Of a stretch of DNA of 64,000 nucleotides, positions 11,137 through 57,419 are shown one piece after another; position 1 is the stretch's first letter, and each line of letters begins with the position of its first letter. The stretch lies in contig CM120647.1 in NCBI GenBank assembly GCA_051362555.1, positions 19,754,651 through 19,818,650 on the forward strand, read 5' to 3'. The translations under genes and the position numbers were made by a program. The notes beneath the pieces are model-generated. The model had not been told where the DNA came from. It did no database searches and saw nothing but the letters and a program-made list of their open reading frames with translations. This stretch comes from Lingula anatina (taxonomy: Eukaryota > Animalia > Brachiopoda).

Positions 11137-11185
<49 letters not shown>

Positions 11186-12181: not shown

Positions 12182-15100
12182 TTAATTTGCGTTTAGGATG
12201 CCTTCCATTTCTTCATACCTGTGGTTTTCCCTTTTCAGGCACACACATCCTTTTGTTAAGAATACTTTATTAGGCATGCACAGCCTAAGTTTTTCCCCGA
12301 ATTTTTCTAGATCTTGTTCTATTTCATTTTTTTCTTTATTTTCTTCTGCGGGCCACTTAAGTATTATACCAGGTCTACAAAACGTACCGTCCATTAATTT
12401 GAGGATCAATTCATTAGTTTCATCTCTTTCAAGTTCATCTCGCTGGATCTCTTGGAGAATGATTGCAATGATTTTCAATTTTCCTGCGTTCACCTGATGT
12501 TGTGCAACTCCCAAAATGTCTTTGTGTTTCGGTGTAAAATACTTCTCGGAGACGAGCATGATGAACAGTCGACTTTGCATTATTTTTTTATGAAAATTGT
12601 CTTCAAGTACTGAAGCGAGAAAAAAAGTTATGGTGATTCAGTGCATGTTTACTCATTAATAACGATGTAGAGGGGATCAGTTATCTATATGTTCATAATA
12701 TTTTAAGTAGGACTCTATAAAATCATAAAATCTTTTATTTAACTCTGAATGAATACACGCACGGATTCTTGTGCTTAGTGATATGTGTAGAAATCAGAAA
12801 ATAATATTGTGTGAACAAACATACGTTATTATACGAAATAATGGGAAATTTTGTGTTAAGTCGGGAGTGTTTAAAGACGAAAAATGAATTAGAAAGGTAA
12901 ATTACCTTCCGATTAAAATGGACTGTTATTATTATAATCAAAACATTTTTATTAACCGAGAATTAAGTATAAGTATGTATTATATCCACTTACTCCCGAA
13001 GACTTCTTCCCGCAGTACTATTTTGTAATCACCTCGATCTCTTAGGCGTTTAAGCTCGTTTAAGCACTTATTTAGCTTGTTCTTTTCATGCGCATTCCCT
13101 ATTTCTTCTTCTGGCTCTTCTCCATCACCATTCCCTATATCTTCTTCTTGTTGCTCTTCATCTTCTTTGTGGTCATAATAGGAGACAATCGCGTCATACC
13201 TATATGAACCTGTAAAGAACAAACAACCCTGCGTGATGCACTTAGTGCAACCCACACCCCCATAGTCAATCATAGATACTGCCTCTGACTGTGAGTGGTT
13301 CATTCACACAGAAGACATTACAGAGATATGGTGCAAAAGAGAACACACAATTGTGAGTTCAATGTTTTGCTTATATATTCGGAGGTGGTATTTGGTTTTT
13401 TGGATATATACATATTAATATGGAATTAACATGGAATATTTCAGTTCTAAAGGTATACCTAGGTAAAAATGCATTCTTTTCTTAAAAAAAATTCAGATCT
13501 CACATAAGATATCTGACTGGAGAAGTATGAAGTCAGGTGTCTGGCTACCATTTAATTGACTACCAAGTCTGTTGCACTGCTGCATTGTGTAATTTGCAGT
13601 GGTTGAATTGGCTAGTGCTCCTTTGGGCTGGTCAAAGGTTGGCTTTGATGAAGCACGGTTCTGTCATAAAAGTATCCATATGTCGGCAACTACCGTAGGC
13701 CTATCGACGAATTTGACATTTTGCATGCAAACGGTCGGTTTTGTAGTGCTTAAAATGAGTTAAGCAGTGTTTTATAAAAATGTTAAGCTCTGTCAGAATG
13801 ACGCTAAAAAGACAGAAAGTGTCAGACGGATTATTGTGTTAAACGGAATTAATGTTCTGTACAGTTTTATAGAGTAATACCCAGACTGATGTACCTACAC
13901 AGAAACCACGCCCAATGTATCGACATCTTACCACCAGGACACAGGACTCACTCTCCTTCAGGATATGCTGCTGCAATTAAACCAAAACCACCCAGTCCGT
14001 TTTGAATGAGGCACAAATTGTCACCTAAACGCGTTTTTCAAGGCTTTTAGCGAACACCAAAATGGTTTCAGCAGGTTAGAATATCAGGTGACCTCCGAGG
14101 AAGCCACTGTAAACAGCAAAACAGCGTAGTCTGTTTCTCTAATCCCAATCTAGTCCAATTACTAACTGGCCTAGACCACATCCCAATTGCATCGTTAATA
14201 ACATAATGAGCATGTTAATTGACCAAGTAATTAATTGGTGAACTGCCAGTTTGTTTGATTGGCATGTGTAATTAAAAAGGGGATGACATAGATCAAGGCA
14301 TACATTTTGAAACCTACCGGTGAAACAGAAGAAATATAGTTGTATTCATTATAAGTGGTTTGTAAAGTACATCCGAGGACGATACTTTTAAAAATAATTG
14401 CATAAATGTTTAAAGAAAAAGCAGATTGATTTAGTACTTAATATAGGATTTTTAAATTAAAGTTAAGACACCATTTGTTTGTGTGTTATTTATTTAGTTT
14501 TTGTACAGATTATAGGAAAAAGTCTGTTTATTCATGTTTTGTTCAGCTTTTTTTTTTTTTTTTTTTTTGAAAATATTTTTTATCTTTAGGATTAATTACA
14601 AAAAAGAGTAAATTAATAGCTAAACCTCGTTATTTTGCAGGCTAATCTATTTGGTAATTTTTTTCAGGTGAAACAGATTATCATTCTTAAAGGAGGTTTT
14701 GATTAGCTTGATCACAGCCACGGCAACTTGTTGTCCATTTGAATTTTTCACAGCTGATTAATTAAAATTTAATAGATTAATTAATGCCACAAGATTAACC
14801 GACCTGAAATGTGTGACAAACCTTATCAAAGTCACTGTACTGTGATTAAAAGCTGCCTGAAAACGACTGTGAAATGAACAACAGTAGGTTGAAACGTTTG
14901 TATTTGGTATTATTTTTAACATGAAAATAGTTCTTGAATAATATTGCATTAGCATGATACCAATGGATTCCTGATCCTTATTTTCAAAATAAGCCTTCTT
15001 ATCACTGTTTAATAATGTCATAGGTTAACATGTATATTTTTTCACTTGGATAAAATCCACGTTTTTGTTATTTAAATACCGGTTTACTCTTCATAAAATT

Positions 15101-17328
15101 TATACAAATATAAAACTGCTAGCTTTCCCTGCTATGCCCTTGATTAAACATCCTTTACGAGATATTTTAATTAATCTGTATTTTGATATGTCTTTTACAT
15201 TGTATAAGATTTTAAAATTAAAATGTTTTCCCTTTAAATATTTATGCAATAATCTTTAAACATTAACGTCTCATGAATTCAACATTTTATACCTCGATCT
15301 ATGACATCCCCTATTTCACTACACCTTTCATGCAAACAAACTGGCAGCGCACCTGTAAATTAATTGGACAATTTATATGGTCATTTTGCTTTTAACAATG
15401 CAAAGACCATATTGTGATGTGGTCTAGGCTGATTAAGTAGTAAACTTGATTGGGATCTGGCCTGTGACATGTCTACATATATATAATGTGCTCTAAGCCC
15501 GAAAGGTGTTTTTGCCAGTTATGTAAGCATACTTTGTCTTTTTATTACAGATTTGTCTTCTTATTACTTACAGCAACACGGTGAACAGCAAGCCAGTGAA
15601 CAAAGGCAACAGATATCCTTCTTTGTAACACACAAAGCATCATCCCTCACAGGACCTGTCGGAATGAATAAAGAAAATATTAGCAACAATTAGGAATGTG
15701 TTTTCTCTTCAACTTATTTTGACAGTATGTTTTCATAAATAAACTTTCTTATTTCCTGAATGTATTTCTGAAAAGGTTTCCTACTTCCAGTGAAAGTGAA
15801 ACAAACAAGTATTTCGATTTTTAACTATACCAACATAAACTTAAATAAATGCGCGAAGAGTAAAGTAATACGTTGTGTACACGAACATCACATGTCACTA
15901 TTGCAATATTTGGGTAATGAGGCAAATTGCTATAAAATAATATAACAAACAGCATTGCCAGTTGGTGAAAAACATGTAGTTCCACTTCAGAACATAGAGG
16001 TTGTTAGGATGCTTCAGACACCACACTCGAAGACCGGTTGCAATCAGGATAACTAGTGTCAAGGCTATAACCCTCGCTATGATGGCCCATGGCAGGTAAG
16101 AGTTGACAATAGCTGCAATGATAGATGAAATAAAACGAATAATAAATGATGACAAACGTAACATGATGTGCTTTGATATCGAATGATTGAAAACAACAAA
16201 TAATACAATTGATTTATCAATTATGATACCAATAAGTCGTTATAAAATAAGTCTACATTTTATTATTACAGTCTAAGAAATACGTAATGCATCAGTGATA
16301 CATTCAGTTCGATATTTAAAACAAAAAAAAAACAAAAAAACATCTAGTAGTCGACATTTGAACAATGAAAACTGCACGCCATGTTACATCGAATCTGTTT
16401 TTCAAGAACAGTTATATTTGCTCAAACAATACAAATACATTTACATTCACCATTTTTTCACTTATCCGTGAATTACCATTGCCTCATCCTCTGTGCGTGT
16501 GTGTGTGTGTGTTTGTGTGTGTGTCACCACCTACCAGTCGGCAACGGGTTAACATTCTTCACTTCAGCATTACATCGGTCTTCATCACTACAGTAGCATT
16601 CAACACCTTCAAAATCTTCAAACTTTCCCGTTCTGAAGTAACTAAAAAACCTCTCGAATCCTATCATTCTCAAATCCGTTGAGCCTTTTCGCGCGTAATC
16701 CCCAGTCATGTAACGACATCCGTCTCCCTCGGGGCGCTTTGCGGCACAATACCGTAAGCTATAGGCTACCGTATGGTTCTGTGAACATACAAATGATAAA
16801 ATTTGCATAATAATAATAATAAGAAGAACAATAATAATAAAAACGATTTATTTATCTAAATTTGTTCTTGTAGACTTTACAAGAATGCAACGTGAATAAA
16901 AAATATAAAAAGGCTTGTAAACGAAATGTAGCAAAGAGCTACATAATATTTATCACTTTTTGAGATTTTACCATTCTACAAGTACAGTTAAGTTTTTTAC
17001 ATTCAAAAAAAAAAAAAGAATAATAAATAAATAAATAAATAAATGTTAACGCCCCAAAACCCACCCCACCCACCCCTTTGATTACATCATTTCCTACGAC
17101 ATTTTTTGTTTAACTCACCTCCTGTTTATTTATATGTCGAAAAGAAAATCCCATCTGTACACAGCCTTCACTGCACTCGGCGGTCGTGTTCACGGTCGTG
17201 TGGCTGCTATTACAGCGCACGTCTCCTAGTGGACCCAACACACTAACGCCATCTATCTCAAGGTATTTGCAGTCGATGCACAGAATGCCAAGAACTGAAA
17301 TTTAACACTGTGTTGATATCAAATTTAG

Positions 17329-17390
<62 letters not shown>

Positions 17391-17697
17391 CCCCCCTACC
17401 CCATCCGCGGAGTATAAATCTGGATCCGGGCGGTAACTAATTTTGATATGTGGCTCACTGCTTTGTCTGCTCGTTAGCAAGGATAAATAGCATGGGATTT
17501 TTGTTGATATGTTTTTGTCCCAGAAAGAATGGCGTTTGTACACATAAAAGTATCTTTGCTACAATTTCACATGTTTTAGACATGATCAGATGTTAACGAG
17601 ACGTGACTGTTTTATTTGTGACCACGTTAGAGATTACCTTACCTCTGCGGTTGAATGTGACGAGAAGAAACACTGCAGCCGTACACAGCTGTCGCAT
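12182..17697 (-). CDS. Gene A1: signal peptide + Ly6/three-finger domain + TM + Cys-rich linker + TIR domain (about 454 aa)
   Basis: Exons 17697-17643, 17294-17119, 16778-16535, 16112-15951 (weak gtttgt donor, least certain junction), 15655-15572, 13209-12994 and 12609-12182 sum to 1365 nt in frame. The ectodomain has 10 Cys (ILCIDC...ECYCSDEDRCN). TM is WAIIARVIALTLVILIATGL. TIR motifs are YDAIVSY, SRLFIMLVSEKY and LKWP...KLRLCMP. Confidence 0.8.
14142..15457. mobile_element. Non-autonomous DNA transposon (MITE-like) in an A1 intron
   Basis: Long imperfect terminal inverted repeats: atcccaatc...cctagaccacatc...ctgccagtttgtttg...ggggatgacatagatc on the left, and gatctatgacatcccc...caaacaaactggcag...gatgtggtctagg...gattgggat on the right. 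No ORF. Confidence 0.7.
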
Positions 17698-18310
17698 GCT
17701 GGGTGTTAAATGCATTAAGCCACAGAGCAAAGAAAGTGCATGTAGTACACGTTTTTACTTCGAATCAATGCGCCTATAATACCAGCCATTGAATAAGACA
17801 TTGATTTACTATACAAATAAATTGAAGTGTCTTTTAAAACGCTCCCCCCGGTTGCAGTAATTGTGTTTTTTAGCGAAATAATTAGAACCAGTTAATCTAC
17901 TTTATTGATTTTTGGTTTTTTACTATTAATACTTGACGAGGCGTATTTACATAAGATAACGACATTTTCTACCGGTTATTGAACATTTCAACCACAGTAG
18001 GTCGGTTTTCATGTCATTACCTATACGCTGTAGACAGCTGGTTGAGAACAATGGGTTCGATTTTTTTAACAATCATACTTAAGAGTCGGGGAAAATAAAC
18101 ACAAAGCTTCACACAATGTTTCGCCATACCATATGATGTTTATTCATTCAAAATTATTTCAATAACGTGCAAATAAAAAGTATAGTTGTAACATAAGTGG
18201 TATATGTCATTGGCAGGGAAATAAGAACTTTTCTCAACGATTCTGTGCAACCGATTTTCAGTTCCACATACAGCCTGTTTGATGCAAACATAGACAAAGA
18301 TATATCAATA

Positions 18311-19155
18311 TCACTCGCCCCCGTTGCCATTAATCTCAACATCTAATTCAATTTGTTCTTGGTGCAGTCCGTCTCTATCAGCTCTTTCAGCTTGGTTTTC
18401 AAGCATTGGCATGAAGTCCACGATGTCATTAAAAAACTTATCCATAGCGTCTTCATTGGGTTTTTCAAAACGCGGCTGTTTCATTAGTTCTCTTACAGAC
18501 GCATATTGTTTATTTTGTTTCAGTTTGCGGTCGAAATCTTCCAAAATTATTGGAATTATTCTTATTTTGTCGTCGTTTAGCTTTTTCCTTGCTCTTCCAC
18601 ATTGGTCATTCACGCCTTCCATTTCAAAATACCGCGGTGAGACGATCATGATGAACCGACTGCTGGCTTCAATGCCAATGTCTTCCTTTTCTGGAAATAC
18701 ACAAAATGTACAAATTTGAATGATTTACTCTGATAATAAACACACACACATACAGCGTGTATTGTTTGAGAACAATGGTCGAGGGTTACTACCCTGTGCT
18801 TCAAACTCCTCTTTCAAACCCAAAAATAATGGAAAACTTTCAACATTAAAAAAGCAGCTTACGTATGGACTTCAATCTTATGGCTGCAAATAAACACATT
18901 TGTTAACTACACGAGTTGAGCATTTGTATCTTTCATTAATATGAAATTCCGCTTACGTCTTGCAATATCCCCGACCCTTTCGTCGGGTTTATATATTCTA
19001 AAACCACGGCGTTCCAACTCTGGTATTAGCCTCCCTTTCACAAACGCTTTGTCCTCTTTTGCGTACTCATTGTACGAAATAAAGGCATGATAGTAGAATC
19101 CTAGAAAATAGAGACGCTTGATATTAGAGCATGACAGAGTTAAATCATGGAGTTG

Positions 19156-19250
<95 letters not shown>

Positions 19251-22200
19251 GTAAGAATTAAGTTCAAATCTATAAATTAAAAGATAATAACAGGGTATCA
19301 ACCAAAAAGAATTTAACCATTTTCTCACAATCAACAGACTGAAAGATTTTAATATTAAGATTTAATTTTAATATAAAGTTTTAATTCTTCATCCAACAAA
19401 CAGTATTCAGGGTAAACCCTGCAGGCGCAAATGGTCTGTAAGCATTTCACCTTCTTAACTAACCCCTTTTTAGTTTTAACAACAATATTTAAACTCTCAT
19501 AAATGTTCGACGTTACCAAGATGAAACAACATACGAATATTGTATATTAATCCATTTTTTCATTGAGAAACTCAACACGTTTTGACAGCACATATTACCA
19601 CAACGTTTAACGTTCTGCAGAATGCTTCCTGGTGACTGACTCTCAATTAAAGAATTGCTTTAATTTACCGTCATAGATGTCGAATATTACCTTTTATTTC
19701 ACCGGTTTCTCTCCACTCATCTGAAAGAGTTATGGCAGAGAGCGTTAACATAAATATGAATCATTAGAAATCTGAACATGGATATTGAAGGACAATTTTT
19801 GTATTAAATACGTTGTTATAGATACGAAACATTTGACGATGGCGGGAGTTTCAGACAGGGTTTAAGTCATACAGCATGCTGTTTAAAAACAGAAACATAA
19901 TCTAAAAACAGTTGTCCGTCTTATTGAGTTTCCTTCAGTCTTAACTTTAATATCTGGTCTTAAACCACTATGAAATAAGAAATTAAAATAAAACAGAATC
20001 CATGTCTGTTTTTCTCTACCTTTTTCTCTACCAACGCGTTTGGACAACATTTGTCAGTATACAAAATGCAAATCACTATTGTCTTATAACGCTAAGGGTT
20101 ATCGTTAACGGCAGCTATTTTTTACCTTCGGCGTCTCCTTCTTTCAAATCATCTGGAACAATTCAAGCAACGATTACATAATAACAATAATAATAATAAT
20201 TTTCCATTAAATGTTATAAAATTAAATTTGTTAAAATATTAGTTAAAATTATTTACAAAACTGATGACAAACACTGGGCGAATTAAAAGTTTTAGTCTTG
20301 CAACCTGAAACCTTCTAGAAAGCATTTTAGATACAGATGGTGGAAATGACAATGAGGCCTTCGAGCTGTTTTCTTGAAAATGAAATCATGAAAAATATAC
20401 GCATGCACAATTAGAAAACAAAATAGCGAACAGCAATTGTCAAACGCCAAGATCTTATTCACGTTGAAATCAAAGTTGCAAATCTTGTAGTGCCTGACCA
20501 CGGCGTGAGAAAATAAACTTACTATCGCCTTCAAAATTTCTCGTTCTTGCAGTCAACTTTACTCTAAGAATTATGCCTTTCCGTAGTGCCCAGATAAAAA
20601 CTATTGGTGCTGAAACTATGATAACGATGCCCACGGAAGCACAAGGAATGATGATATTCAACGCAGGTCTCACACTGGGGATGGCTGCAATTAATGTAAA
20701 ATAAATATAAACTAAGTTTAAAAACTGAATTCATACATATACACAATCCGTATTATTGCGATGTGTAATTATGTAGGACAGTATGTTGAATCGAATATTT
20801 TGCAAAGGAAAAACATTTGTTACATACTGCACCGGTATTGTTAGGCTACAGAGGTGTAAATGCCGACGATTTTCTTATACTTAAAAATTATATTGCATTT
20901 CATAAGGACAGTAGTTGACTTAAAATTATTTGAAGGCAGTTAAAGATTATTTCAACACCACCTCCTCACGTGGCACCATAGGGTTCCTTTGACAAAGATA
21001 TCGAACAAACTTGTGGTGTTGCAGTTTTTGTTTCATCCTTTAGTTCATTTCTAAAAATCATCACCGGTACTTGAACGCAAGGGTCGACTATTGGAATTAT
21101 AGAGACACTATAGCCGATAATACAATGTAACTGTCAGCTGTAATCAAAGCAAAATCAAAAGAAAAGAGCCGCTTAGGAAAAACACACAATGCCTACCCGT
21201 TGGGAGTGGGCCCAAATTAATGATATCTTTATTACACATATCACCGTCATTGCAGAAGCATTCTTTTCCCTGGATGTCCACGATAGTGAAATACTGAAAT
21301 ATAGGTAGCAGTTGATGTACGTCCGAAACAGCTTTGTGACTCAGTTCCTGAAACAATGGACTCTGCGCATCATTCGACATATCCCGACATCCGGGGGTCA
21401 CCAGGAGCTCCACTGCGCAGGACCGGAAGTAAATTGTCATGTTCACAGCTTTGTTTACCTAAAGAAAAAAATGACAATTTATAACAATTTACTCTTGATT
21501 TCTTTTTTCTCTTTATTCTCTTCGCGAGTAGGTGTTTCTTTAAAAATCGGTATGCCATTAATTACATGTATGTTGCAACCACTTCATATTACATGTAAAT
21601 ATGTATAGGGCTTACATGCACTTGTGGTAATGAAAACGCTTACTAAAATGTGAGCCAACTTTCATAATAAATAGAGCCAGCCAGACTTTGTCACCTCTAA
21701 TCTTTTATCTTAGCAGGCCCAAATATATGAAAGACACATATTTACCGATTCGTACACGGTTACCATGCTAACTTGGAACTGGATACATGCTTCGCTGCAA
21801 TTTCTGGTGACATTTATAGCGGTCGGGCTGTCCATGCAGCGGGGGTCAGCTTGTAAAGCTCGGTTCATAAGGGCTATGGCACTCGTCTCATTACCCTCCA
21901 GATACATACAATCTACGCACTGTAGTGCTCCTTGAAAAAAATAACACGATGATAAGACGTTAATATAAAGACCAGCTATAGTTCTATGTTAGATAAGAAG
22001 TGCCTTCTTCAGGACTTCTCCGTGGATTATTCTGAATTTTTAGCAGGCACACTTGTACAAGCAGGCACACAAGCAGAAAACTTTAACAGATGTGGCAGCA
22101 ACACCAGTCTAACAGAACCAGTTTGGTTGCTTGTGCATAGCATTAAAATCGGTCGTTTTATACAATTTGTTTTAAGCCATATTCGCCCAAGGTTCTAATG

Positions 22201-23160
22201 AAATGAAAACGAATATATCAAAATAGCCGTAATTAATAATTGCGGCAGAGATGTGGTTTCTCGGGAGAATTATGAGATTATCTTGGACAGAGAGAATAAC
22301 AAATCAGGAAGTTTTGGAGAGAGCAAGAACAAAGCGTTTCCTTCTAAAAAGCATACGAAAGAGACAGTTGGAATTTTTAGGACACGTAATGCGGAAGGAA
22401 GAGCTGGAACATCTTAGTGTGACAGGCAAGATCAATGGAAAGCGAAGCAGGGGCGAAGCAGGGGCAGGCAAAGATTAACCTGGGAAAACATGTCCTATGG
22501 ACGTGCATTCCCTGGAATGTACTGTCCTACCCGGACCTAGATTCCCAGCTGTATCTTTACGCAGCTAGGACATGTATTCCTGTCGGACATAATTTCCTTT
22601 CACAGTCTAGCTGGGAAAATACGTCCGACTAGGACATCGATACCTGTCTGCAGGACTTAGAATACTAAGTAATGGGTGTCCCCTGGACGTTAGATCCCAG
22701 GAAATTATGTCCTAAGACATGCGTTCCGAGGAATGGAAGAGCCAGGACATGCATTCATAGGACTTTGTGTCCGCAGGACATTCATTCCTAGGAATACATG
22801 TCCTACGGACATGCATTACGGCGGACATCCATTCCCTTCACACCGGCGGCACATGTAGCATTCATAGAACACATTCAGAACAGCGGACTATTGAAAAGCT
22901 TGCCGCTTAATTCTCGATTAGACACTGAATAGATTCCCAGCGGGGATTACGCAATAAGCATTCAAGTGGGGCGGCCATATTTGATCGGCCATATTTGATT
23001 CGGTTAGTCCGCTGTTCTGAATGCGGTCATACATGTACTAACAAACATGCAACTTTTGTTATCTTTTAGTTTCGTAAAAAGCCTCACGTTTTTACTGGTA
23101 CTTACCAACATTCGGAATAACTATAAAATATAAAAGACAAAAAGCCTGCCATAAGTTCAT
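18311..23160 (-). CDS. Gene B1: signal peptide + Ly6/three-finger domain + TM + TIR domain (414 aa)
   Basis: Exons 23160-23106, 21930-21746, 21458-21197, 20684-20523, 20152-20126, 19720-19691, 19100-18957 and 18690-18311 are all GT-AG and give a 1245-nt open frame. The ectodomain has 10 Cys (LQCVDC...ECFCNDGDMCN). TM is IIIPCASVGIVIIVSAPIVFIWAL. TIR reads YHAFISYNEYAKEDKAFVKGRLIPELERRGFRIY...SSRFIMIVSPRY...IIPIILE...KFFNDIVDFMP. Confidence 0.9.
22240..22460 (+). mobile_element. RTE-clade LINE 3' fragment in B1 intron 1
   Basis: AAEMWFLGRIMRLSWTERITNQEVLERA...IRKRQLEFLGHVMRKEELE...GKINGKRSRG is typical of the RTE ORF C-terminus. Confidence 0.85.
22478..22845. repeat. Degenerate tandem array of self-complementary GGACATGCATTCC/TAGGAAT-like units, probably a MITE interior
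   Basis: The ggac(a/g)tgcattcc, tgtcct and aggaca motifs recur throughout. The array is absent from the paralogous B3 intron. Confidence 0.6.
22873..23023. mobile_element. Small MITE-like element
   Basis: Perfect inverted repeat CATTCAGAACAGCGGACTA / TAGTCCGCTGTTCTGAATG about 150 bp apart. Confidence 0.65.
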
Positions 23161-24923: not shown

Positions 24924-26246
24924 TTAATACAAACACCATAACATGCAGTACGTGGCAGCCATTAGGGTGGTTAGCAACAGTTCCAGACTGCACACGCCGC
25001 TGCAGCTTGAAGTTTGAGGCTTGTGTGTAGCAGTAACAGCACTTGAACTGGTCTCTTTAATTCCTTTGGTAGATTTCGAAGACAAAGTCGTCGTGGGATG
25101 TGTGGGTTTTGTAGACTTAGCTGTGATCCTAGTTGTAGATGACTTTGTGGGCGTGGTCGGGGTCACAGATGATTTTGTGGGCGTGGTCGTGGACGTAGAT
25201 GCACTGGAAAGTGTTGTCATCGGTCTGGTACATCCATTTTGGTTACATGTGCAGACTTCGGCTGATGTGGTGTGACTTTGTAGGCCGGTGCCAGTCAAGG
25301 CATCCAATGAAAACAACCCAGTCATGGCTGCGTCACTGTCTGTCAATCGTGAACATCTGTCAGCAGATTTACTCGCAGAGCATAACCGCTCCGTCAGCTT
25401 CATAGTGACGGTCACCAATGACTTAATTAAAGAAAGAAAATATAGTGAAAATAAAAAAAGCCACTTTAGAACCAACATGACAATCACTTTTTGTTAGTTG
25501 GTTTGTTTGTATTCTGTAGGAGAACAAAAAGAATCAATATAGACTTTGATTGGTGGCATGAAATTTAATTGACATTTTTTCTCGTTTACATTACTGTATT
25601 CCACTTAACGTGCTTCTGAAAATTTATGTTGCTTCACCTGCCAACATTTCACATATTCTATTTCATAATGGTTTCAGGCAATGGAATACAAAGCAAAACA
25701 TATCTATTTATAAATGTGCTTGAACTTTCTTGTTTGTTTGTTTGTTGGCTCGTTATTTTTTTAGTTTGTTTGTTTGTATGTATTTTTTTTTTGAATAATT
25801 TATTTTCTTACCGCAGAAATCGTCCCTTCGCCCACAGAGCTCAGACATGACCCACGGCAGCTGACAGTCTTTGTCTGAGATGGATTCGACACACACTTTT
25901 GGTCCATTTCCCCCAGAAACCAGTTCCCAATAAGTCCTAGGAGTAACTGTACCATGAAGTCGCTGGAGGTATACTCCATGTACTCACATTTGGGGCATTG
26001 CACTGCTGGAACTTTTGCATAAATGATGGATGAATACCAGTAAATAAATAAATGAAATAATTGATTTAAAAAGAAACAAGTAATCATCATTTTTACAAAC
26101 TAATGAAAATGAACATTATGCATTCAAATAAAACTTCCGTAAATATTACTTGTAAATCATACTAATGGAAGAGACCTATAACAGTATGACAAAAAAAGTT
26201 CTAAAAATGTCGATGATGATACATGTATTAGAATAATAATAACTAT

Positions 26247-26277
<31 letters not shown>

Positions 26278-29200: not shown

Positions 29201-29606
29201 TTTTTCCAGATTGAAAATATATTATAATATGCACACTGATCAAATTATAAAGAAAATCTCCAGATGTAAACAAAGGACAGTCAAGTATCACTCATCCCAG
29301 GCTGCAGGGCAGATAAAGAGAATTGAATGGAGCGCGAGTGATCTGGCAACCCTACAATTTCGTCATAATGATTCATGGGCAAACAATAGAAGCATGAAAT
29401 TAACACCTTTTACAGTGTGAAGGACGACACCTAATGAGGCTTTTGTTTTCCCCCTGGATGGTTATTACAAAGTAAGAATGTTGACGTAAGTGTTATCTGC
29501 TTCCTGGTGAAGACTTTTGCGTGTTCAAAGGAACAATGGAAATGTCATTTCAAAACAAAGAGCCACATTTCCCTACTTAGGTGGCCAAAATTTTGTCAAT
29601 GAAACG

Positions 29607-29637
<31 letters not shown>

Positions 29638-34220: not shown

Positions 34221-34221
34221 C

Positions 34222-38090: not shown

Positions 38091-38162
<72 letters not shown>

Positions 38163-41667: not shown

Positions 41668-41717
<50 letters not shown>

Positions 41718-43789: not shown

Positions 43790-43863
<74 letters not shown>

Positions 43864-44178
43864 CGTGCGCGTGTCACCACCTACCAGTTGGCAACGGGTT
43901 AACATTCTTCACTTCAGCATTACACCGGTCTTCATCACTACAGTAGCATTCAACACCTTGAAAATCTTCAAACTTTCCCGTTCTGAAGTAACTAAAAAAC
44001 CTCTCGAATCCTATCATTCTCAAATCCGTCGAGCCTTTTCGCGCGTGGTCCCCAGTCATGTAACGACATCCGTCCCCCTCGGGACGCTTTGCGGCACAGA
44101 ACCGTAAGCTATAGGCTACCGTATGGCTCTGTAAACATACGAATGATAAATTTTACATAATAATAGAAAGAAGAACAA

Positions 44179-44233
<55 letters not shown>

Positions 44234-45398
44234 TATATTGAGTCTAAAACCAAAATTTGTTCCCGAAGATGACCAATGCAAATGCAACGTGATATATACA
44301 TAATAAAAAGGCTAGTAAAAGAAATATAGGGTATACCTACGTGATATTTGTCACGTTTTGAGATTGTGTCATTCAACATGTCCAGTTATGTTTTTTACAT
44401 ACAAAAAGGACAAAATGTCAAAACCCCTAACCCTACCCTTGTTTACGGTATTTCTTAAGAGAAAGTAATTTGAATATCTCGTGATTAACCCACCTCCTGT
44501 TTATTTATATGTCGAAAAGAAAATCCCATCTGTACACAGCCTTCACTGCACTCGGCGGTCGTGTTCACGGTCGTGTGGCTTCCATTACAGCGCACGTCTC
44601 CTAGTGGGCCCAACACACTAACGCCATCTATCTCAAGGTATTTGCAGTCGATGCACAGAATGCCGAGAACTAAAATAAAACGCTGTGTTGATATGTAATC
44701 TTCAAAGAGTTTGTGGTCTTGGTTTGTTTATAATTCTTCTTTTTTCTCTCTGCCTGTCTGTCTGTCTGCATAATAATTAAGTTCGTGCCTTATCCGTAGC
44801 AACTAAAAAAATAGCAATTAATTCACTCATTTTCAAAACCAAAAAACAATATGATAATACAAAATAAATAAATAAAAAGGAAAAAGGGACGATATAGAAC
44901 CAAATGTGTTGGTTCAGTCTATCTGTCCTCTTTATGGGACAAAAAAAATATATAGGACTTCTTTGTTTTTAAAGAATTACAAAATGTGCAGAAGACCAGG
45001 ACAATCACCAGGACAATATACATATATGTGTGTGTGTGTGTGTGTTTGTGTGCGTGTGCATTGTATGCCCCATTTCCAAACCTCACAGCATAAATTTAGC
45101 TCCTGGCCCGTATTTTTTTGGTAGCTTAAAATCTAACATTTTATTTGTGTTTCACTCCGTCGTCTACTTGTTACTAAAAGACAAAAATAATGGACTTTAT
45201 ATCGATAAATTTTTGTTCCAGATAGACTGAATTTTTTGTACACATAAAGGTATCTTTGCTAAAATTTCACATGTTAAAGACACGGATCAGATGTTTACTA
45301 AACGTGACCGTTTTGTTTGTGACCACGTTAGAGATTACCTTACCTCTGCGGTTGAATGTGACGAGAAGAAACACTGCAACCGTACACAGCTGACACAT
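42108..45398 (-). CDS. Gene A3: signal peptide + Ly6/three-finger domain + TM + TIR domain (392 aa)
   Basis: Exons 45398-45344, 44669-44494, 44128-43885, 43380-43219 (requires a GC donor, AG|gcaatg), 42932-42789 and 42505-42108 give 1179 nt in frame. The TM and first TIR exon lengths (162 and 144 nt) equal those of gene B. Confidence 0.8.
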
Positions 45399-48120: not shown

Positions 48121-48271
48121 AGTATCTCTCGTGCACGTTGCCATCATTCACAACGTCTAATTCAATTTGTATCAATGAAGTATCAGTATCTCTTGTGCAC
48201 GTTGCCATCATTCTCAACATCTAATTCAATTCGTTCTTGGTCCAGACCCTCTCCATCAGCTTTGTTTTTAA

Positions 48272-48622
48272 TAGTCCAAGAAATTGGTGCAGAAAAAAGG
48301 GTGAATTGTGCGTTTTTTACCTACAAGCATGAAATTTGCCACAGTTGTAGATAATGGAATTCTAAGCTTTTTTGGATATATGGGCATGTCTGAAAATTCC
48401 AGTATGGCCGCCAAATCCAATATGGCCGCCACAAATACTCTTTTAAATTAAAACATCTAATATATAGTCCTAAAATGGTTTAGAATATCATTTTATAGCT
48501 GGAAAATATCATGCTATGAATGAATTATCAATATCCGCTTCTACAGGTGTATAGAATTCCAAAATGGCCTCCAAAAGTAAAATAAGCAGTTTACTTACGC
48601 AAAATATGCAGCAGTTTTGTAA

Positions 48623-48653
<31 letters not shown>

Positions 48654-51600
48654 TTTATTTATAGTCTAAAATCCAACATGTGTTCAGTAGACTTTACAAA
48701 AATTATAAAATTCAAATTAAAAGAAAAATATTGCTAATGGTTATAAGATGAAAGGATATATAAAATGGATAAAAAAAAGGGGAAATTTAAAACTATGACT
48801 AAGAACAGTTTTTCTTAAGAAGTTTTTTTTTTTTCTTTTAAAGAATTTAAAGATAATATTGTTTAAAAAGGTGGGTTTTTAGTTCCTTTTTAAAATGTCC
48901 AGGGTCCACAATTTGTCTAAGACTGATGGGTAAAATATTCCATTCTTTTGGTGCTGCAAATTTAAAAGCTTTATCACCGTATGATACTAATCTTGCCTTA
49001 TAAACCTTAAGAAGAAGGTGATCACCTGATCTGAGATTTCTTGATGGCACGTAGTGTGAAACAAGCTCATTTAAATAAGAAGGTGCAAGTTTATAAAATG
49101 CTGCATGTGCAAATGTTAAAAGTTTGAATAAAATGCGTGCTCGGACAGGGAGCCAGTGCAACATCATTAAAACAGGAGTAATGTGGTTGTCTTTTGGAGT
49201 GCGGGTCAGTAGGCGAGCAGATATATTCTGTACACGCTGTAGCCGTTTGATTTGTTCCTCTGAAGATCCATAAAGAAGGGAGTTGCAGAAATCAAGTCTC
49301 GATGTAACCAGGGCATGTATAACTGTTGCTGTAGAAGAGTCGGTTAAATGTTTTCGTAAGGAACCAATGTTTCTAATATTGAACATACATGTTTTGGATA
49401 CGTTGGAAATTTGCCTGTTCATGGACAATGTACTGTCAAAATAAACTCCCAGATTTTTGGCGTGAGATGAGACTTGTACCACGCTGGCACCTATTGACAT
49501 GCTAAGACTGCGGGCAATGTTCTTATTGTGTGGTTGAGATATTACTAGGAATTCAGTTTTCTCGTCGTTGATCTTGAGTTTGTTTCTGATCATCCACCCC
49601 CTTATATCAGAAATACAGTTGGCTATTTTAGTAATTGATGATTCAGGTTTTCTAATATTGCAGGATGTGTAAAGCTGAGTGTCATCAGCATAAATGTGAT
49701 AACCAATCTCATGAAAACGAAGGATTGCACCAAGCGGTAAAGTATAAATACAAAATATGAGTGGTCCTAACACACTGCCTTGTGGAACACCAAAGACAAG
49801 TTGAGCTAATCATCAAGCACTTACAATTACAAGCATAAAAATTGGCACAGTTATGTAGAACATGATTCTAAGCAACGTTGGATATAGGGGCATGTCTGAA
49901 AATTCCAATATGGCAGCCAATTTCAATATTGCCCCCAAAATACCCTTTCAAGGTGAAAGTTATTTGTATAGTATTTTATAAAAATATCATTTAATGGTTA
50001 GAAAATACCATTGTATGTATGAAGTATCAGTATCTGCCAGTTAAGGTTTTAAAATTCCAAAATGGCCTCCAAAAGTCAGCAGACCACAACTATTGAATTG
50101 TAATCACTCGGGAATAGGCAAGTGGGCTTTGCAAAATACCTGTACAATCAGCATATTCCTACCTGTGCAGGAGCTATTCTACAGAGTTTTTAAAAAACCA
50201 TCAAGCATGATACATTTATTATGTACTGAAAAAAGTCCTTCTTTTGATAAACCAACATAAGTAGTTTGACTTTTTGCTCTGGATTCTCATTTAGATCAAT
50301 TCCCAGTTAGCAATCTTCTTATATGGCACTCATGAGTGACTCCCCCTTTCTAAGAAAAAAAGTATCGTGCAAAATCCATAAAATGTGAAAGAAACACCAG
50401 AATAACTTAGCCTTAAAGAGGCAAATATAAAAAAAACTTGGGGTGTACCAATTTTGTCTCTTGGTTATGATTCTTCAGCTAGATCAGTGCATGGCGCTTC
50501 ATCAAATGCTCATAAATATAACAAAAATGACAGCTAATCAAACATACAGGTCTCAACAATTTGGTGTTTTTCATTGGTAAAGTACTAAAAGCAGCGCACA
50601 TTTGCACTCGATAATGTTATGATGTTATCTTGTGCTTCAAAAATAAATTAGAAAAGCTTCTTATTTAAAAAATTGGCTTTAGTACATTCGCAGTAATGGC
50701 TACCGAGAATTTAGTGAAAATTTATGAGCAAAGAAATACCTGTACCCCAAACAGAGGGCAGGTGTTGATACGTGCTGTATCCAAGAGTTGCATTGCAGAC
50801 TTCACACTTCGTGCACAAAAAAAGAAGCACTGATCTATAGGCGCCAAACTTTGGTTTTCATTTGATCATTTGGCAACTTGTTTAGTTACAAACTTATACT
50901 TTCAAAAAACTGAACATGAAAATAAAAGAATTAAAATCCTCCAGACAGTTAATACATACAAAACTTCAAAAAACGATGTATTCTGAGGATTACACCAAGA
51001 AATTAGTGCAATATGGACTTTGAAAGGTAAAAATTCATGAGATTTCCGGCATCATTGTCTCTGTGGGACAATCCAGAATGAAGCCACGAGGAGTATTCAC
51101 TTACCCAGCTTACAAAATCTACCAGGTAGCTCCTACCACATCTGTTTGTAGTTATGTGTGCAGTTGCTAACTGTGGTGAGGGGAGTCAGAAGCATTGGAA
51201 GACTGGTGCTATAAGGGTTCACACTAGTAACCTACATCTACTAATATGCCCTTCCACACTTTCATGTTCCTATGGACCGTCATGCATGTAAACTGAGTCA
51301 GAAGCATTGGAAGACTGGTCCTATAAGGGTTCACACTAGTAACCTACATCTACTACTATGCCCTACCACACTTTCATATTCCTATTGACCCTCATGCATG
51401 TAAACTGATGCTTTCTGGTGTTAAAAAAGACCAATGCCTCTTGGTATTTTGTTGGGGAAAGTGGATTACATGTAGAAGCTTTAGCTTTAAGGAAATACTG
51501 GGAAAGCTGAGGGAAACACAACTACTAGTAAAGCTAGGCACACATTAATGAATGAAAATTATTTAACCAAATAAGTAGAAATTTCGGTGTAGCTAGCTGT

Positions 51601-52966
51601 TATCCTCTGTTCAGATATTGTCCATTTACTAAAGTAAAAGGTTGACCGCCCATAAAATGTGCAACACTTACTTGATAAAATAACTTTCGTTAATTTGAAA
51701 CTTACTTGTGAAAATACCTTGACATTTTCATATCCTTGACATTTATAGAATTGCTGCATGTGGTGTCACAACTAGACCAAAAGGAGTCCTGTTCCATTTT
51801 TTATGGTCATTTGGGTCTAAATGTAACTAAAGGAGCGAAAAACCAAAAAAGAGTAAAGACTGTTGTCAGTCAGATTATATAGTAGTCTTTTTTTACTTTA
51901 AAGGGGTTTTAGTGGCCATATTAGAATATTCAGACATGTCCCTATATAACAAATTGCTTAGAATCCTGTTCTGTACAATTGAGCCAATTTTCATGCTTGT
52001 AGTTTTAAGTGCATGATGAATTCACCATACTGCTGCTGTGAGTGGCCTGTTTTTCTTATTTTTGGAGGCCATTTTGGATTTCTATACACTTAAAGAATCA
52101 AATATTGATACTTCATGCACACCATAGTCTTGTCTAACCATAAAATGTTATCTTAAGTTATTAAATGATTATATATACTTGAAGTTTTAATTTGAACGGG
52201 TATTTGTGTCGGCTATATTGGATTTGGGGGCCATATATTGAAATTTTTAGACATGCTCATACATCCAAAAGTACTTGGAATCCTGTTTTACAACTGTACC
52301 AAATGCCATGTTTGTAGTTTTTGATGAATTAACCACTCTGCTGGATATCTTGGATTAGTAGAGTGCTTTTTACTATTGGCGGCCATTTTGGATTTAATAC
52401 ACCTAAAAAAGCAAATATTGATTCTGAATTCATACTGTGGTGTTTTTTAACCTTTGTATGATATTTACGCCCTTAAAAGACTATATACTTGAAGTTTTAA
52501 TTAGAAGCCGTATTTTTGGAGGCCATCTTGGATTTGAAGGCCATTTTTAAAATTTTGGATATGCCCATACATCCAAACTTGCTCAGAATTTCATTTTCCA
52601 CAAACCTGCCAAATTTTATGCTTGTAGTTTTAAGTGCTTGATGAATTCCCCATTCAAATGGATATCTTGAATAAATGGTCTGTTTTTTTTACTTTTGGCG
52701 GCCATTTTGGATTTAATACACCTGAAGGATTCATACCATGGTGTCTTCTAACCTTTATATGATATTTTAAGTCATTAGAAGACTATGTACTTGAGGTTTT
52801 AATTTGAAAAGGTATTTTGGTGGCCATATTGGATTTGACGGCCATTTTGGAATTTTCAGACATGCCCATATATCCAAATTTGCTTAGAATTTTATTGTCC
52901 ATAAGTGTGCCAAATTTCATGCTTGTAGGTAAAAAATGCACAATTTTTCACCAATTTCCTGGACTA
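48272..52966. mobile_element. Academ-like DNA transposon (degenerate/non-autonomous) inserted in the last exon of gene B3
   Basis: Termini are TAGTCCAAGAAATTGGTG...CACCAATTTCCTGGACTA, with long imperfect TIRs and repeated (A)ATATGGCCGCC-type subrepeats. The 3-bp TSD TAA lies at 48269-48271 and 52967-52969. TAG...CTA ends with a 3-bp TSD fit Academ, but the superfamily call is an inference. Confidence 0.8.
48625..49810 (-). mobile_element. L2-clade LINE 3' fragment nested in the DNA transposon
   Basis: ORF 48847-49773 reads (FGVPQGSV)LGPLIFCIY...[10 protein letters not shown]...LKINDEKTE...[12 protein letters not shown]...[10 protein letters not shown]...[10 protein letters not shown]. The element ends in an (ATT)n tail. 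Confidence 0.92.
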
Positions 52967-55192
52967 TAAGCTTTGGCATGTAGTCTACGATGTCGTCAAA
53001 AAACTTGTCCATTGCGTCTTCATTTGGTTTCTTCAAACGTGGCTGTTCCAAAAGTTTTCTTACAGATGTATAGTCTGTGCCGTCATTCCTTTGCAAAAGG
53101 TAGTGATCGAAATCGAAATTTTCCATGATTATTGGAATTATTCTCAATTTGTTGTCCTTTAACCGATTCCTTACTCTGCCACATAGGTCATTCACGCCAT
53201 CCATATCAAGGTACTGTGAGGAGACGATCATGATGAACCGACTGCTGGCATTAATTCCAATGTTTTCTGGTCCTGAAAACGCAAAATATAGCTTAAACCC
53301 GTGAACAATAGGCACTGATTCATGCAGTAACGATAACAATATTTAACTATGTAAATTTTTAACTCACATATACAGTGTATATTGTTAGTGGTCGATGTAC
53401 TTAACTCTGTGTTTCAAACTCTCTAATTCAACCGCAATAAATAATAACTATTACAAGACAGTCTATGTTTGGATTCGAATTTCATGACTGCATAGAAAAA
53501 TTGTCAACTTATCTAATTGAGCATTTGTATCTGAGCTTATACTATATGAAGTATTTTGATTATGAACTGTCACATACGTTTTACAACTTTTCCAGTCCTT
53601 TCGTCAGGTTTATATATTTTATAACCGCGCCGTTCCAACTCTGGTATAAGGTGTCCTTTCACAAACGCTTTGTCCTCTTTTGCGGACTCATTGTACGAAA
53701 TAAAGGCATGATAGTAGAATTCTGGAAAAAAGAGGAGTTTGACACCAGAGCCACAAAGTTGTTAATATATACACTCTAGAATTAAGATAAAATCTATAAC
53801 TTTAAAGATAATGACAGGCTATTAACAGGAAGGATACTAACCATTTCCTTACAATGAACAGACTCAAAGATTAAGACGAACTTTATACAACAAACAGCAT
53901 TAAGAGTAATTCACATGAAAATAGTAGATGAGTCCATTTCTTCATTGAGAAATGTTGCGGGTTGCACATATATAACCACAATGTTTTACATATTGTATGC
54001 TTGAGGCTGTCACAACAAATTGCTGTTATAGCTGTCAATCCTTACCTTTTATTTCTAAGGTTGCTCCGAGCTCATCTGAAAGAGTTGAGGCAACAAGCAT
54101 AAATGCGTGCATGTGCATGATTTAGAATTGTAAACATGGGCCTTAAACGACATTTTTTTAAAGAAAATCCGTTATAGGTACGAAATATTTGACTATGGCG
54201 GGTGTGTCAGTTAGAGTTTCAGTCTGACATTAATTTAAGCTGTTTTGTTGAAATACAGAAAAATAAAGAAATAATCTGAAAACATCTTAGTGATTAATTT
54301 TCATTCAGTTTTAACTTCAATATCTGGACTTAACGATTTCGAATGGTAAAATTAAATAGAAGAAAACAATAAAGAACGTCTATTTTTCTCTTATGCCTTA
54401 TTAACCCAGAGCGTTGGGACAACATTTGTTACAATACAAAATGCAAGTCACGGTGGTCTTAGGGTTTACTGATAATGGAAGCTATATCTTACCTTCGGGG
54501 TCTCCTTCATTCAAAACGTCTGGAACAAATTACACAATAATAAGAATACAGAAAAGCCATATTACTATAAAATATAAACAGCCTTACAAGTTTTTTTAAA
54601 TAAATACACAGGTAGAGAATATTAAGCAATAATACTCAAACGCCAATATATATATATGTATTTCTTACGTTGAAATCAAAGAGAAGGTTGCAAATCTTGC
54701 AGTTTGCCTAAACCTCGGCGAGAGAAAATTGTAACAAACTTACTGTCACCATCAATATGTCTCGACCATGCGTTCAAATCTGCTCTTAGAATTTTGCCTT
54801 TCCGTAGTGCCCAGAAGAAAACTATTGCTGCTGAAACTATGATTACGATTCCCACAATAACACAAGGAATGATGATATTCCACGGAGGTCGCTCCCTGGG
54901 AATGGCTGCAATTAATGTAAAATAAATATAAACTAAGTTTTAAAACTGAATTCATAGGCATACACACATGATTACAATCCGTATCATTGTGATATGTGTT
55001 ATTATGTAGGATATTTTGTTGAACCTAATATTTTTCAAAGGAAAACATTTGTCACTGCAACAACATACTTACAGGTGCCAACAACATTCTGTTACTTATT
55101 AATTGTATAACATTTCACTAGCTGATACCCGTCACATCAATCATTGCACCTTGATTAGAGATTAGCCTTCAGGTGCAAAAAGAATCATCAAC

Positions 55193-55256
<64 letters not shown>

Positions 55257-57419
55257 CAAAACATTAAAGAAAAAAGAAAACGAGACTACGTGAAAATCGA
55301 AACCGTGACCAGTGGTTATCCTGCTACCAGTATCTGATTGGTGTTATTAACAATATATGACACCTACCACACATGCCGAAGCTTTCCGTAATTGCCGAAG
55401 GATAGAAAATGCCTTCAAACTATAATTTTAATAGTCATGATCAAATTAAAACTACGACCACTATCTTTCCACTCCCTTTAGGTATTGCTAACACCTGCTA
55501 GTGGTGAACAGATAGTTGTAGTTTGGAAGAAAAACGTGCTAAAGAGACTTCGGCTTGATTTAAAATTAATTTAACGCAGTGAATGGTTATTTCAACACCA
55601 CTTCCATAAGTGGTACCGTAAGGATCCTTTGTCAAAGATATCGAACGAATAGAACTTGTGTGGTGTTGCAGTTTTTGTCTCATCCATTATTTCGTTTCTT
55701 AAGTCATCAACGGTGGTTGCACGTGTGGGTCAATTTTTGAAATTATACGACAACTACAGCCGATACGACAATTAACTGTGATAAAAGTAAAACCAAAAGA
55801 AAAAAAGGGCTCTGGAAAAACACACAATGCCTACCCGTTGGGAGTGGGCCCAAATTGCTGATATCTTTATTGCACATATCACCGTCATTGCAGAAGCATT
55901 CTTTTCCCTTGATGTCAACAACAGTGAAAAACTGAAATACAGGCAGCAGTTGATGTACGTCCGAAACAGCTTTGTGACTCAGTTCCTGAAACAACGGACT
56001 CTGCGCATCATTCGACATATCCCGGCATCCTGGGGTCACCAGGAGCTCAACTGCGCAGGACCGGAAGTGAATTGTCAAGTTCACAGCTTTGTTTACCTAA
56101 AGAAAAAATGACAATTTATACAATTTGATGTTTTTTTTTCTTTTCTCTCCTAACTCCCCTCGCTAAAATTCGGTAAGTGTCTCTTCAAATATTAGTATAC
56201 CATAAATTATGCTGCAAGCACTTCTTGTAAAGAGACTGCTCTAATAAGTACTCTTAGTACATACAGTAGGCTCCTACAGGTGGTGATCAAAACACACAGT
56301 TAAAGGCCAACTCCATGGGATTTACTCGCCAAGATGGATTTTCCCGGGAAATAAGTAATTTTCTTGTACTTACGAAACATTTATCTATTCCACGCTGCAC
56401 TTGGATTCGACCTTTAATTAAATGTAATTAATAAAGGATTATTTAGTTTAAAATGTCTGGCCAGTCATTGTAACCAGCGACCCTATTCTTAAGGTCTGAT
56501 AGAATTACCAGTGTTAACATCTGGTAAGCCTACGCTCCAGAAAAAATAAAATTATCCAACGGGCTTAATCTTTCAGTAGGTGAATGTTAGGTCTTAAAAG
56601 AAGCGACGGATGGAAAAAAATAAGCATTACGGGTATTTTCAAACCCATGGAGTGAACCTTGAAAATCTGAAAATGCTTCCAAGAGAGCCGACTTCCAGTT
56701 CCTATAAGCTTTGCTTTACACAAGTCGACACAAAAGAAACATATTTACCGATTCGTATACAGTTACCATGGAAACATGGAACTGTATGCATGCTTCGCTG
56801 CAATTTCTGGTGACATTTATAGCGGTCGGGCTGTCCATGCAGCGGGGGTCAGCTTTTAAAGCTTGGTTCATAATGGCTATGGCACTGGTCTCATTACCCT
56901 CCAGATACATACAATCTACGCATTGTAGTGCTCCTTGAAAAACACGATGATAAATTAATATTTTAAATTATTAATTGAATGACAAAATCAGTATTATGCA
57001 TTATTATGCTTGTGAATAATCTAACAAATCTTACACGTGTAGGATTTAACAGTAGTGTCAGCAAAAGTATTTCTATCAGTAATAATGGAAACTCGTTTTT
57101 GTGACATTAACAGCCGTTGTTTAAACAATTTGTTTTATTCACCCAAGGTACTAATGAAATCAACACGAACACAAAAGTACGTAGCCCATCTTCTAGTAGT
57201 TAGTAAGCAGTGTATCTATTGCATGAGTGAGCATAACAAACACGACTGTGTTTCAGATAATGTACTGATAGCACACATACATGTACATGTACAAAAATAT
57301 CAAACCTGCAACTTTTCCATAAAAGAAGTTTCGTAAAGAACCCCCGTTTTTAAACAGTACTTACCAGTATTCGGAATAACACCGAAAGATAAAAAACATA
57401 AGACCTGCCAAAATTCCAT
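52917..57419 (-). CDS. Gene B3: signal peptide + Ly6/three-finger domain + TM + TIR domain, C-terminal tail replaced by transposon sequence
   Basis: Exons 57419-57365, 56933-56749, 56096-55835, 54905-54744, 54519-54493, 54075-54046, 53721-53578 and 53272-52917. The first seven exon lengths equal those of B1. The original tail (KNKADGEGLDQERIELDVEN...) is stranded at about 48183-48270. Confidence 0.85.

Follow-up and report, generated by a model that had tools for sequence, protein, structure and literature searches.

Animal receptors that join an ectodomain through a transmembrane (TM) helix to a cytoplasmic TIR domain include the Toll-like receptors, with leucine-rich repeats (LRRs) outside the cell, and the IL-1 receptor family, with immunoglobulin (Ig) domains. 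The original prediction for the locus described here treated LRR and Ig as the classical ectodomains of TIR receptors; they are not the only ones, as EGF-TIR receptors are known in molluscs and an EGF-TIR class is named in the available parts of PMC4346834 and PMC9334734. It also held Ly6/uPAR/Quiver proteins to be normally secreted or anchored by glycosylphosphatidylinositol (GPI), which needs qualifying, since three-finger (LU) domains are also known on TGF-beta receptor kinases and on LU-type G-protein-coupled receptors (LU-GPCRs). We analyzed a 64,000-nucleotide (nt) stretch of the genome of Lingula anatina (contig CM120647.1, positions 19,754,651 to 19,818,650; hereafter the window), in which a tandem array of predicted genes of three types, A, B, and C, encodes proteins with a likely three-finger ectodomain, one TM helix, and a TIR domain (LU-TM-TIR; types A and B), or with LU domains and no TIR (type C). 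The LU-TM-TIR proteins are a genuine variant of TM-TIR receptors that appears not to have been described and comes so far from Lingula only. They would add the three-finger domain to the sensors wired to TIR (LRR, Ig, and EGF), as one more route to Toll-type signaling, and would add TIR to the means by which LU domains pass on a signal (kinase and seven-transmembrane [7TM]). Their interest is limited in that they come from one species so far and that their signaling role is predicted from the genes.

The Lingula proteins have the ectodomain-TM-TIR layout of the Toll-like and IL-1 receptor families but differ from both outside the membrane: Pfam found no LRR family (11 proteins scanned) and no Ig family, and a domain with ten conserved cysteines (10-Cys domain) fills the ectodomain instead. 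Among the animal TIRs that the search returned from outside Lingula, molluscan EGF-TM-TIR proteins (XP_067678317.1, GFS18128.1, and RUS73076.1) came nearest (E 6.5e-5 to 6.7e-4). The alignment runs from the TM helix through the juxtamembrane stretch into the TIR, and both sides share a single TM, a basic juxtamembrane stretch, and a TIR with SRRxIxIxS and ...F...L.MP motifs. The molluscan proteins have EGF repeats outside and keep the Glu of helix alphaC, whereas the Lingula proteins have neither (EGF as judged by Pfam; the three molluscan matches have it), and a profile comparison of the Lingula ectodomain with one of the molluscan proteins gave no match (probability 0.09). With Quiver/Sleepless-type and Ly6/uPAR proteins (Pfam QVR and UPAR_LY6; TEX101 and CD177), the Lingula ectodomain shares a 10-Cys pattern ending in CxC-x4/5-CN. 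The C genes have the usual Ly6/uPAR layout of two LU domains, a stalk, and a GPI-type end. The A and B ectodomains differ from Ly6/uPAR/Quiver proteins, which are secreted or carry a GPI anchor: they are longer, have predicted helical inserts, and are linked by a TM helix to a TIR inside the cell. A three-finger ectodomain is likewise combined with an intracellular output in TGF-beta/activin receptor kinases, BAMBI, and LU-GPCRs (PMC13719153, available parts); in the Lingula proteins TIR replaces the kinase or 7TM part, and Pfam found no kinase family. Of the weak matches to the Lingula ectodomain, those to AMHR2-ECD and the TGFBR2 ectodomain rank among the best. In contrast to SARM1-like TIR NADases, the Lingula TIRs lack the catalytic Glu in helix alphaC.

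The literature searched holds no description of the LU+TIR combination, which agrees with the suggestion in the original prediction that the class may be undescribed; the Gerdol 2017 TIR catalogue and the Gerdol 2018 survey of Lingula immunity lie outside that literature and could include these genes among orphan TIR proteins. A survey of LU proteins in 387 invertebrate genomes (2026) counts 101 in Lingula, gives brachiopods only "LU, RK," and in its available parts never mentions TIR (PMC13719153). The TIR classes named in the available parts of PMC9334734 and PMC4346834 are ARM-, EGF-, Ig-, TPR-, and orphan, with no LU-TIR. In the corresponding parts of PMC2575513 and PMC8662601 the terms uPAR and Ly6 were not found, those of PMC6321704 hold no LU-TIR description, and the single mention of Ly6 in those of PMC8260672 concerns C-type lectins.

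In sequence searches, a profile made from the second of the LU exons matched 7 proteins among 1849 candidates, all from Lingula anatina, and none among proteins of 72-259 amino acids (aa); by these comparisons LU-TIR appears confined to Lingula so far. A TIR profile built from the five last exons and run against 1.84 billion representatives returned 10 matches with weak E-values: one from Lingula, five animal-type TIRs (four of them named molluscan), two multi-TIR proteins, and two chance-like matches (saposin and ankyrin). None of the nine non-Lingula matches has the 10-Cys pattern. None of 187 candidates matched the A3 TIR exon in a word-based search, although a 454-aa A-type protein is present in the collection as a cluster member, so this search was blind. 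Proteins of this kind are annotated as "uncharacterized" or as TIR only because their ectodomain falls under the Pfam thresholds, and other invertebrate "orphan" TM-TIR proteins may hide such domains.

Self-comparison of the window showed a C-B-A three-gene unit repeated in tandem on the minus strand: C3-B3-A3, a collapsed C2/A2, and C1-B1-A1 (Table 1). All seven exon models (B3, A3, C2/A2, B1, A1, C1, and C3) are open without an internal stop, and 38 of the 39 introns are GT-AG, the exception being a GC donor in A3. The interval 12182..57419 runs exactly from the last base of the A1 stop to the B3 ATG. The products of the five TIR genes start with a hydrophobic N-terminus. In each gene, two exons encode the single 10-Cys domain, one in-frame exon, always of 162 nt, encodes the TM, and two encode the TIR, with leader/LU/TM/TIR boundaries in phase 1 throughout. 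The TM is a single strong Kyte-Doolittle peak (2.4-3.2) in all five. The open spliced frames that had been assembled by hand, each with a 10-Cys domain, one TM, and a TIR, were therefore reproduced, and three of them have close counterparts among RefSeq proteins of Lingula anatina: B1 is identical to XP_013409484.1 at 387/388 residues, B3 to XP_013418756.1 at 367/373, and A1 to XP_013409468.1 at 452/454, with the same TM-to-TIR join. XP_013418738.1 is a further B-type, leader included. LU, TM, and TIR are joined in four RefSeq models, each named "uncharacterized." The signal peptides of the original prediction stand as hydrophobic N-termini, called on hydrophobicity alone at a threshold of 1.6, under which the B3 leader falls.

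The ectodomain (~125-135 residues) is very probably a divergent Quiver-like three-finger domain, judging from its sequence and from structural models. Cys spacing in the five TIR genes is 2, 18-23, 12, 3, 24-26, 9, 29-42, 1, and 4-5, followed by CN; the ten Cys align across the A, B, and C types, with the N-terminal CxxC and C-terminal C-N motif present, and the A3 leader has two further Cys. Disulfides of three-finger domains pair 1-5, 2-3, 4-6, 7-8, and 9-10. A six-frame scan gave 11 occurrences of the motif CxC-x4/5-C[NT] (9 in models, 2 across stops), whereas 30 shuffled sequences averaged 0.6 and never exceeded 3. On C-type LU1, Pfam QVR spans its whole model (1-86/86) at E 1.8e-4 and 0.009, under the cut-off; the best QVR score, also on a C-type protein, is 22.9 bits against a cut-off of 27.3. 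C-type LU1 shares 91% identity with the C2/A2 ectodomain; with the B-types it shares about 27-30%, with 10 aligned Cys. Three-finger families make up 7/10 of the Atlas structure rows for B and 7/10 for A, and by Atlas features the TGFBR2 ectodomain comes first (0.80-0.81). With the A1 model, the top four of 48,161 chains were AMHR2-ECD, CD177 (two entries), and TEX101, all established three-finger folds, aligned end to end (Z 3.4-4.0, rmsd [root-mean-square deviation] 3.4-4.2, 79-85 residues); three-finger proteins fill 8/50 best rows, at Z 4.0 and lower. A second structure search with the B model placed TEX101 first (Z 3.7).

Several results pull the other way. The A and B ectodomains have no convincing three-finger Pfam match (the best is otherwise Activin_recp, E 4.2), the Atlas rows all lie under its naming bar, the AlphaFold ectodomain models are weak (pLDDT, a per-residue model confidence, of 64 and 41), and Foldseek with the ectodomain model returned nothing at E<=0.001. 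In the wide structure search with the B model, CheX/GGDEF folds (Z 3.7-4.7) ranked above TEX101 (Z 3.7, rank 9), and CD177 also fell behind bacterial folds. We rejected a CheX/GGDEF identity for the B ectodomain, these being cytoplasmic bacterial folds at background Z. A PDB sequence search with the LU profile gave no match, and a predicted complex of the A and B ectodomains scored 0.00, which we counted neither way. Our assignment is made because the Cys pattern and the sub-threshold Pfam, Atlas, and structure matches converge, no single test being decisive. As for the original prediction, its Cys pattern held and the fold-level matches lean weakly toward a three-finger fold, with no naming threshold reached; of the AlphaFold and Foldseek check proposed with it, the structure searches brought up TEX101, CD177, and AMHR2-ECD, and the Foldseek part came back empty. 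In C1 and C3 a pair of 10-Cys domains is followed by a Ser/Thr stalk and a hydrophobic C-terminus; both are predicted to be GPI-type by hydrophobicity only.

The TIR assignment is firmer for the B-types. Pfam TIR_2 is above cut-off in all three B-type proteins (37-51 bits vs 28), and both TIR and TIR_2 are above it on XP_013418756.1, the B3 counterpart. Pfam TIR is above cut-off in the last exon of A3 (31 vs 21.3), and A1 and A2 fall under it (E 0.0045-0.057), so the proposed Pfam check succeeded for the B-types and A3 and failed for A1 and A2. The best solved matches of B1 are the TIRs of TLR6, TLR1, and TLR2/15 (E 2e-5 to 4e-4); A1 had no match among PDB sequences. A1, A2, and A3 share 72-81% identity in the TIR core, whereas A and B TIRs share only 25-34% and form separate, supported clades. 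An intron splits the TIR at the BB loop. The predicted box 3, WP...F..KLR or an equivalent, is found in the A-types only; the B-types read QP..KP..MDKFF. In all six Lingula TIRs the alphaC Glu of W/FCxxE is replaced (Q, L, L, I, I, and I), and the A-types have an Asp one place before the catalytic-Glu column. Absence of this Glu goes with absence of NADase activity, and the BB-loop Pro lies in the interface of head-to-tail TIR assembly (PMC11745336, available parts).

We give about an even chance to the reading that these are single-pass three-finger TIR receptors for a conserved protein ligand, acting as a non-enzymatic scaffold that recruits MyD88-type adaptors. The conserved ectodomain would bind a conserved extracellular protein ligand; TGF-beta receptors and Ly6 proteins bind protein ligands through their three-finger domains (PMC13719153). 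The receptors would then cluster, and their aligned TIRs would recruit a MyD88-type adaptor through a non-enzymatic scaffold. A-types (with Pro-Gly in A2 and A3) may dock the adaptor, B-types (no Pro) may serve as co-receptors or dampers, and C-types may present or buffer the ligand. More tentatively, paired A/B receptors with a GPI-type C co-receptor encoded in the same three-gene unit could bind a TGF-beta-like or cytokine-type ligand in a type I/type II manner and signal through TIR assembly, as a new class next to the LRR, Ig, and EGF types that is still swapping ectodomains by recombination.

Alternatively, these could be inhibitory or decoy receptors, whose ectodomain captures ligand and whose degenerate TIR jams TLR/IL-1R-type assemblies in the manner of SIGIRR or BAMBI; isoforms limited to LU-TM or to LU would be additional decoys. 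The BB-loop Pro is missing in A1 and in all three B-types (4/6 TIRs), which counts against adaptor recruitment and fits such a role, as do the acidic insertion of the A-type TIRs, the relaxed TIR constraint, the weak A-type donors and TIR-less RefSeq models described below, and the GPI-like tail that results from read-through of the B LU donor. The Pro-Gly is nevertheless kept in A2 and A3 (and only there), the TIRs are under purifying selection, and two divergent TIR types are maintained side by side in each unit; we consider an inhibitory role unlikely.

Transcript evidence bears on how far the scaffold-receptor reading extends to the A-types. We aligned raw RNA reads from six of nine runs (X1, X2, X4, and X7-X9) to parts of the window: 12100-23300 at 90% likeness with four runs, and 35200-45500 at 82% with four runs. 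On 12100-23300, the B exon 2-3 joint, between the two LU exons, is spanned by 6 reads (runs X7 and X9) and the A TIR1-TIR2 joint by 3; the B joint from TM exon to TIR1 has 4 reads, in which the 25 letters between match exon 5 and exon 6 is skipped in frame. No gene joints are listed there for runs X1 and X4. On 35200-45500, all four runs gave RNA depth over A3 and A2 exon bins and zero in two A3 intron bins. The LU-TIR family is expressed, at a low level.

Against this stand several observations. The joint from LU exon 3 to TM is absent among the joints listed for four runs (depth ~0.2-2), and on 35200-45500 the only gene joint among those listed is C-type exon 1-2 (17 reads), repeat rows crowding the rest. 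Most aligned reads are only 82-95% like the window, even on exons; they therefore speak for the family, other alleles, or paralogues and not for these alleles, and their divergence suggests that the species is highly polymorphic, that further paralogues exist, or that a separate Lingula lineage goes by the same name. The RefSeq A3 model XP_013418759.1, which reads through the GC donor, and the A1-like XP_013385846.1 lack the TIR, and one B-like RefSeq model starts at the TM exon (TM-TIR only). The TM-exon donors of A1, A2, and A3 are the weakest three of 39, at -1.7, -1.7, and 0.8, against 4.8-12.3 for the other 36. The proposed RNA check of LU-to-TIR splicing was accordingly answered in part, the LU exons being joined to each other and TM to TIR in B. 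Because of the weak TM-exon donors and TIR-less RefSeq models, we regard the A-type genes as probable and the B-type genes as firm, so that the five LU-TM-TIR copies originally predicted become two firm and three probable.

The same donors and the two RefSeq A models that end early would also fit a reading in which true LU-TIR receptors are of the B-type only and the A-types are LU-TM proteins with short or Cys-rich tails, their TIR exons separate or rarely joined; an A-type TM-to-TIR joint is likewise absent among the joints listed on 12100-23300. We find this rather improbable, because the in-frame TM exon is present in all five genes, XP_013409468.1 makes the same join, and the A TIR exons have acceptors, have no leader of their own, are transcribed, and are conserved. 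For the B-types it is compatible with the scaffold-receptor reading.

Read-through of the LU donor in B1 and B3 gives a hydrophobic, GPI-signal-like tail, whereas in A1 and A3 it meets a stop after three residues. On sequence grounds the B1/B3 read-through could yield decoy isoforms, either anchored or secreted; the RNA reads showed no support for it. The C2/A2 chimaera has no counterpart among the RefSeq proteins returned. MetaClust entries P0009 and P0013 are older fused mis-models that combine A-TIR, C, and B parts; they show an A2-like TIR exon and a further A-type TIR to exist in another assembly.

The ratio of nonsynonymous to synonymous change (dN/dS) is <1 in 14/14 paralogue comparisons (LU 0.16-0.26, TIR 0.28-0.66). 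The difference between LU and TIR has p=0.007 (whole) and 0.04 (core) in A1/A3 and p=0.12 in B1/B3. A caveat to a conserved ligand is that LU has the lower dS as well (0.11-0.17, against 0.35-0.45 in TIR), and copy-to-copy exchange therefore explains part of the ectodomain conservation. Pattern recognition, with the three-finger domain itself binding microbial molecules in place of LRRs, would be in keeping with the tandem expansion, the chimaera formation, the four N-glycan-type sites in B ectodomains, and the two adjoining ricin-type lectin genes. It is improbable, since the ectodomains are the most conserved part of the proteins (93-96% identity, dN/dS about 0.2) and diversifying pathogen sensors usually show the reverse. 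Least probable is a gene-model artifact, in which prediction fused adjoining GPI-type Ly6 and TM-TIR genes: the absence of an LU-to-TM joint among those listed, the GPI-like read-through tail of B1 and B3, the TM-TIR-only RefSeq model, and the fused P0009 and P0013 would suit it, but LU and TM exons lie only 422-1138 nt apart, the LU donors before TM are strong (9.1-10.7) and the acceptors canonical and in phase in 5/5 genes, no leader goes with the TM exon, LU and TM are joined in four RefSeq models, and no RNA depth falls in bin 20702-21075, just past the B1 tail.

The C2/A2 gene bears on how the receptors envisaged in the scaffold reading may have arisen. Its ectodomain groups with C-type LU1, and an A-type gene supplies the TM and TIR. 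At the junction, the remnant of C exon 4 ends in a (CA)n(GA)n repeat that is found in intron 3 of A genes, and, as the stranded C exon 4 lacks an acceptor, LU1 can splice straight to TM. The family would have arisen when phase-1 introns brought together an LU module from the neighboring GPI-type Ly6 genes and a TM-TIR module of the sort seen in molluscan EGF-TIR and IL-1R-like receptors; C2/A2 would be the same ectodomain swap happening again. With a likely donor family (the GPI-type C genes) and a fresh chimaera in one locus, receptor birth by exon shuffling becomes directly studiable. C2/A2 also has a degenerate second A-type TM exon, located after its Cys-rich exon and before TIR1.

Table 1. 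Positions of genes and other features in the window.
Feature	Span	Strand	Exons or parts	Remarks
C3, two LU, predicted GPI type	59423..61895	-		405 aa; heads the C3-B3-A3 unit; outside 12182..57419
B3, LU-TM-TIR	52917..57419	-	57419-57365, 56933-56749, 56096-55835, 54905-54744 (TM), 54519-54493, 54075-54046, 53721-53578 (TIR1), 53272-52917 (TIR2)	8 exons, 406 aa
B3 LU-donor read-through	55835-55746	-		
A3, LU-TM-TIR	42108..45398	-	45398-45344, 44669-44494, 44128-43885, 43380-43219 (TM, GC donor), 42932-42789, 42505-42108	6 exons, 392 aa
C2/A2, chimaera	35262..39892	-	C-type leader and LU1 39892-39841, 39540-39362, 39096-38874; A-type TM 37735-37574; Cys-rich exon 37284-37192; TIR 36211-36032, 35707-35262	444 aa
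C2/A2 junction	38095..38260	-		C exon 4 remnant, acceptor AG->AA, 2-nt insertion
Degenerate second A-type TM exon	36480-36645	-		
C1, two LU, no TIR, predicted GPI type	24924..32151	-		383 aa
B1, LU-TM-TIR	18311..23160	-	23160-23106, 21930-21746, 21458-21197, 20684-20523 (TM), 20152-20126, 19720-19691, 19100-18957, 18690-18311	8 exons, 414 aa
B1 LU-donor read-through	21197-21145	-		
A1, LU-TM-Cys-rich linker-TIR	12182..17697	-	17697-17643, 17294-17119, 16778-16535, 16112-15951 (TM, weak GTTTGT donor), 15655-15572, 13209-12994, 12609-12182	7 exons, 454 aa
A-gene 3'-flank-like sequence	63587..64000	-		76% over 417 nt to 11550-11928
Inverted-repeat element	48271..52967			~4.7 kb; terminal inverted repeats, ~315-bp internal repeats; inserted behind B3 TIR
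Reverse transcriptase fragment	48850-49809			nested in the element; Pfam RVT_1
Repeats of B3 tail coding stretch	45967-46172, 48105-48261	-		
LINE-like fragment	46637-47782			
Ricin-type lectin gene	5092-6384	-		
Ricin-type lectin gene	10178-11458	+		
Ricin-type lectin remnant	~34131-34214			
LINE-like open frame	1-627	-		

C3 matches XP_013418755.1 at 399/405 residues. The A-gene flank-like sequence at the window's end suggests that the array probably continues past position 64000 with a further A gene. A1 and A2 have an extra Cys-rich cytoplasmic exon that A3 lacks, which from its sequence could be a palmitoylation or metal site; its acceptor region is similar to that of the first TIR exon. 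In the window, the tail of B3 is interrupted behind the TIR by the inverted-repeat element; the original tail resumes at ~48270 and matches the RefSeq C-terminus. The element is probably polymorphic, because it is absent from the RefSeq B3 model. The coding stretch of the B3 tail recurs in several repeats, which flank a fragment resembling a long interspersed nuclear element (LINE). The LINE-like open frame at the start of the window had no Pfam match at E 0.001. The two lectin genes adjoining the array are divergently oriented, encode ricin-type beta-trefoil proteins (Pfam above cut-off) with His-rich N-termini; a remnant of one of them lies inside the array.

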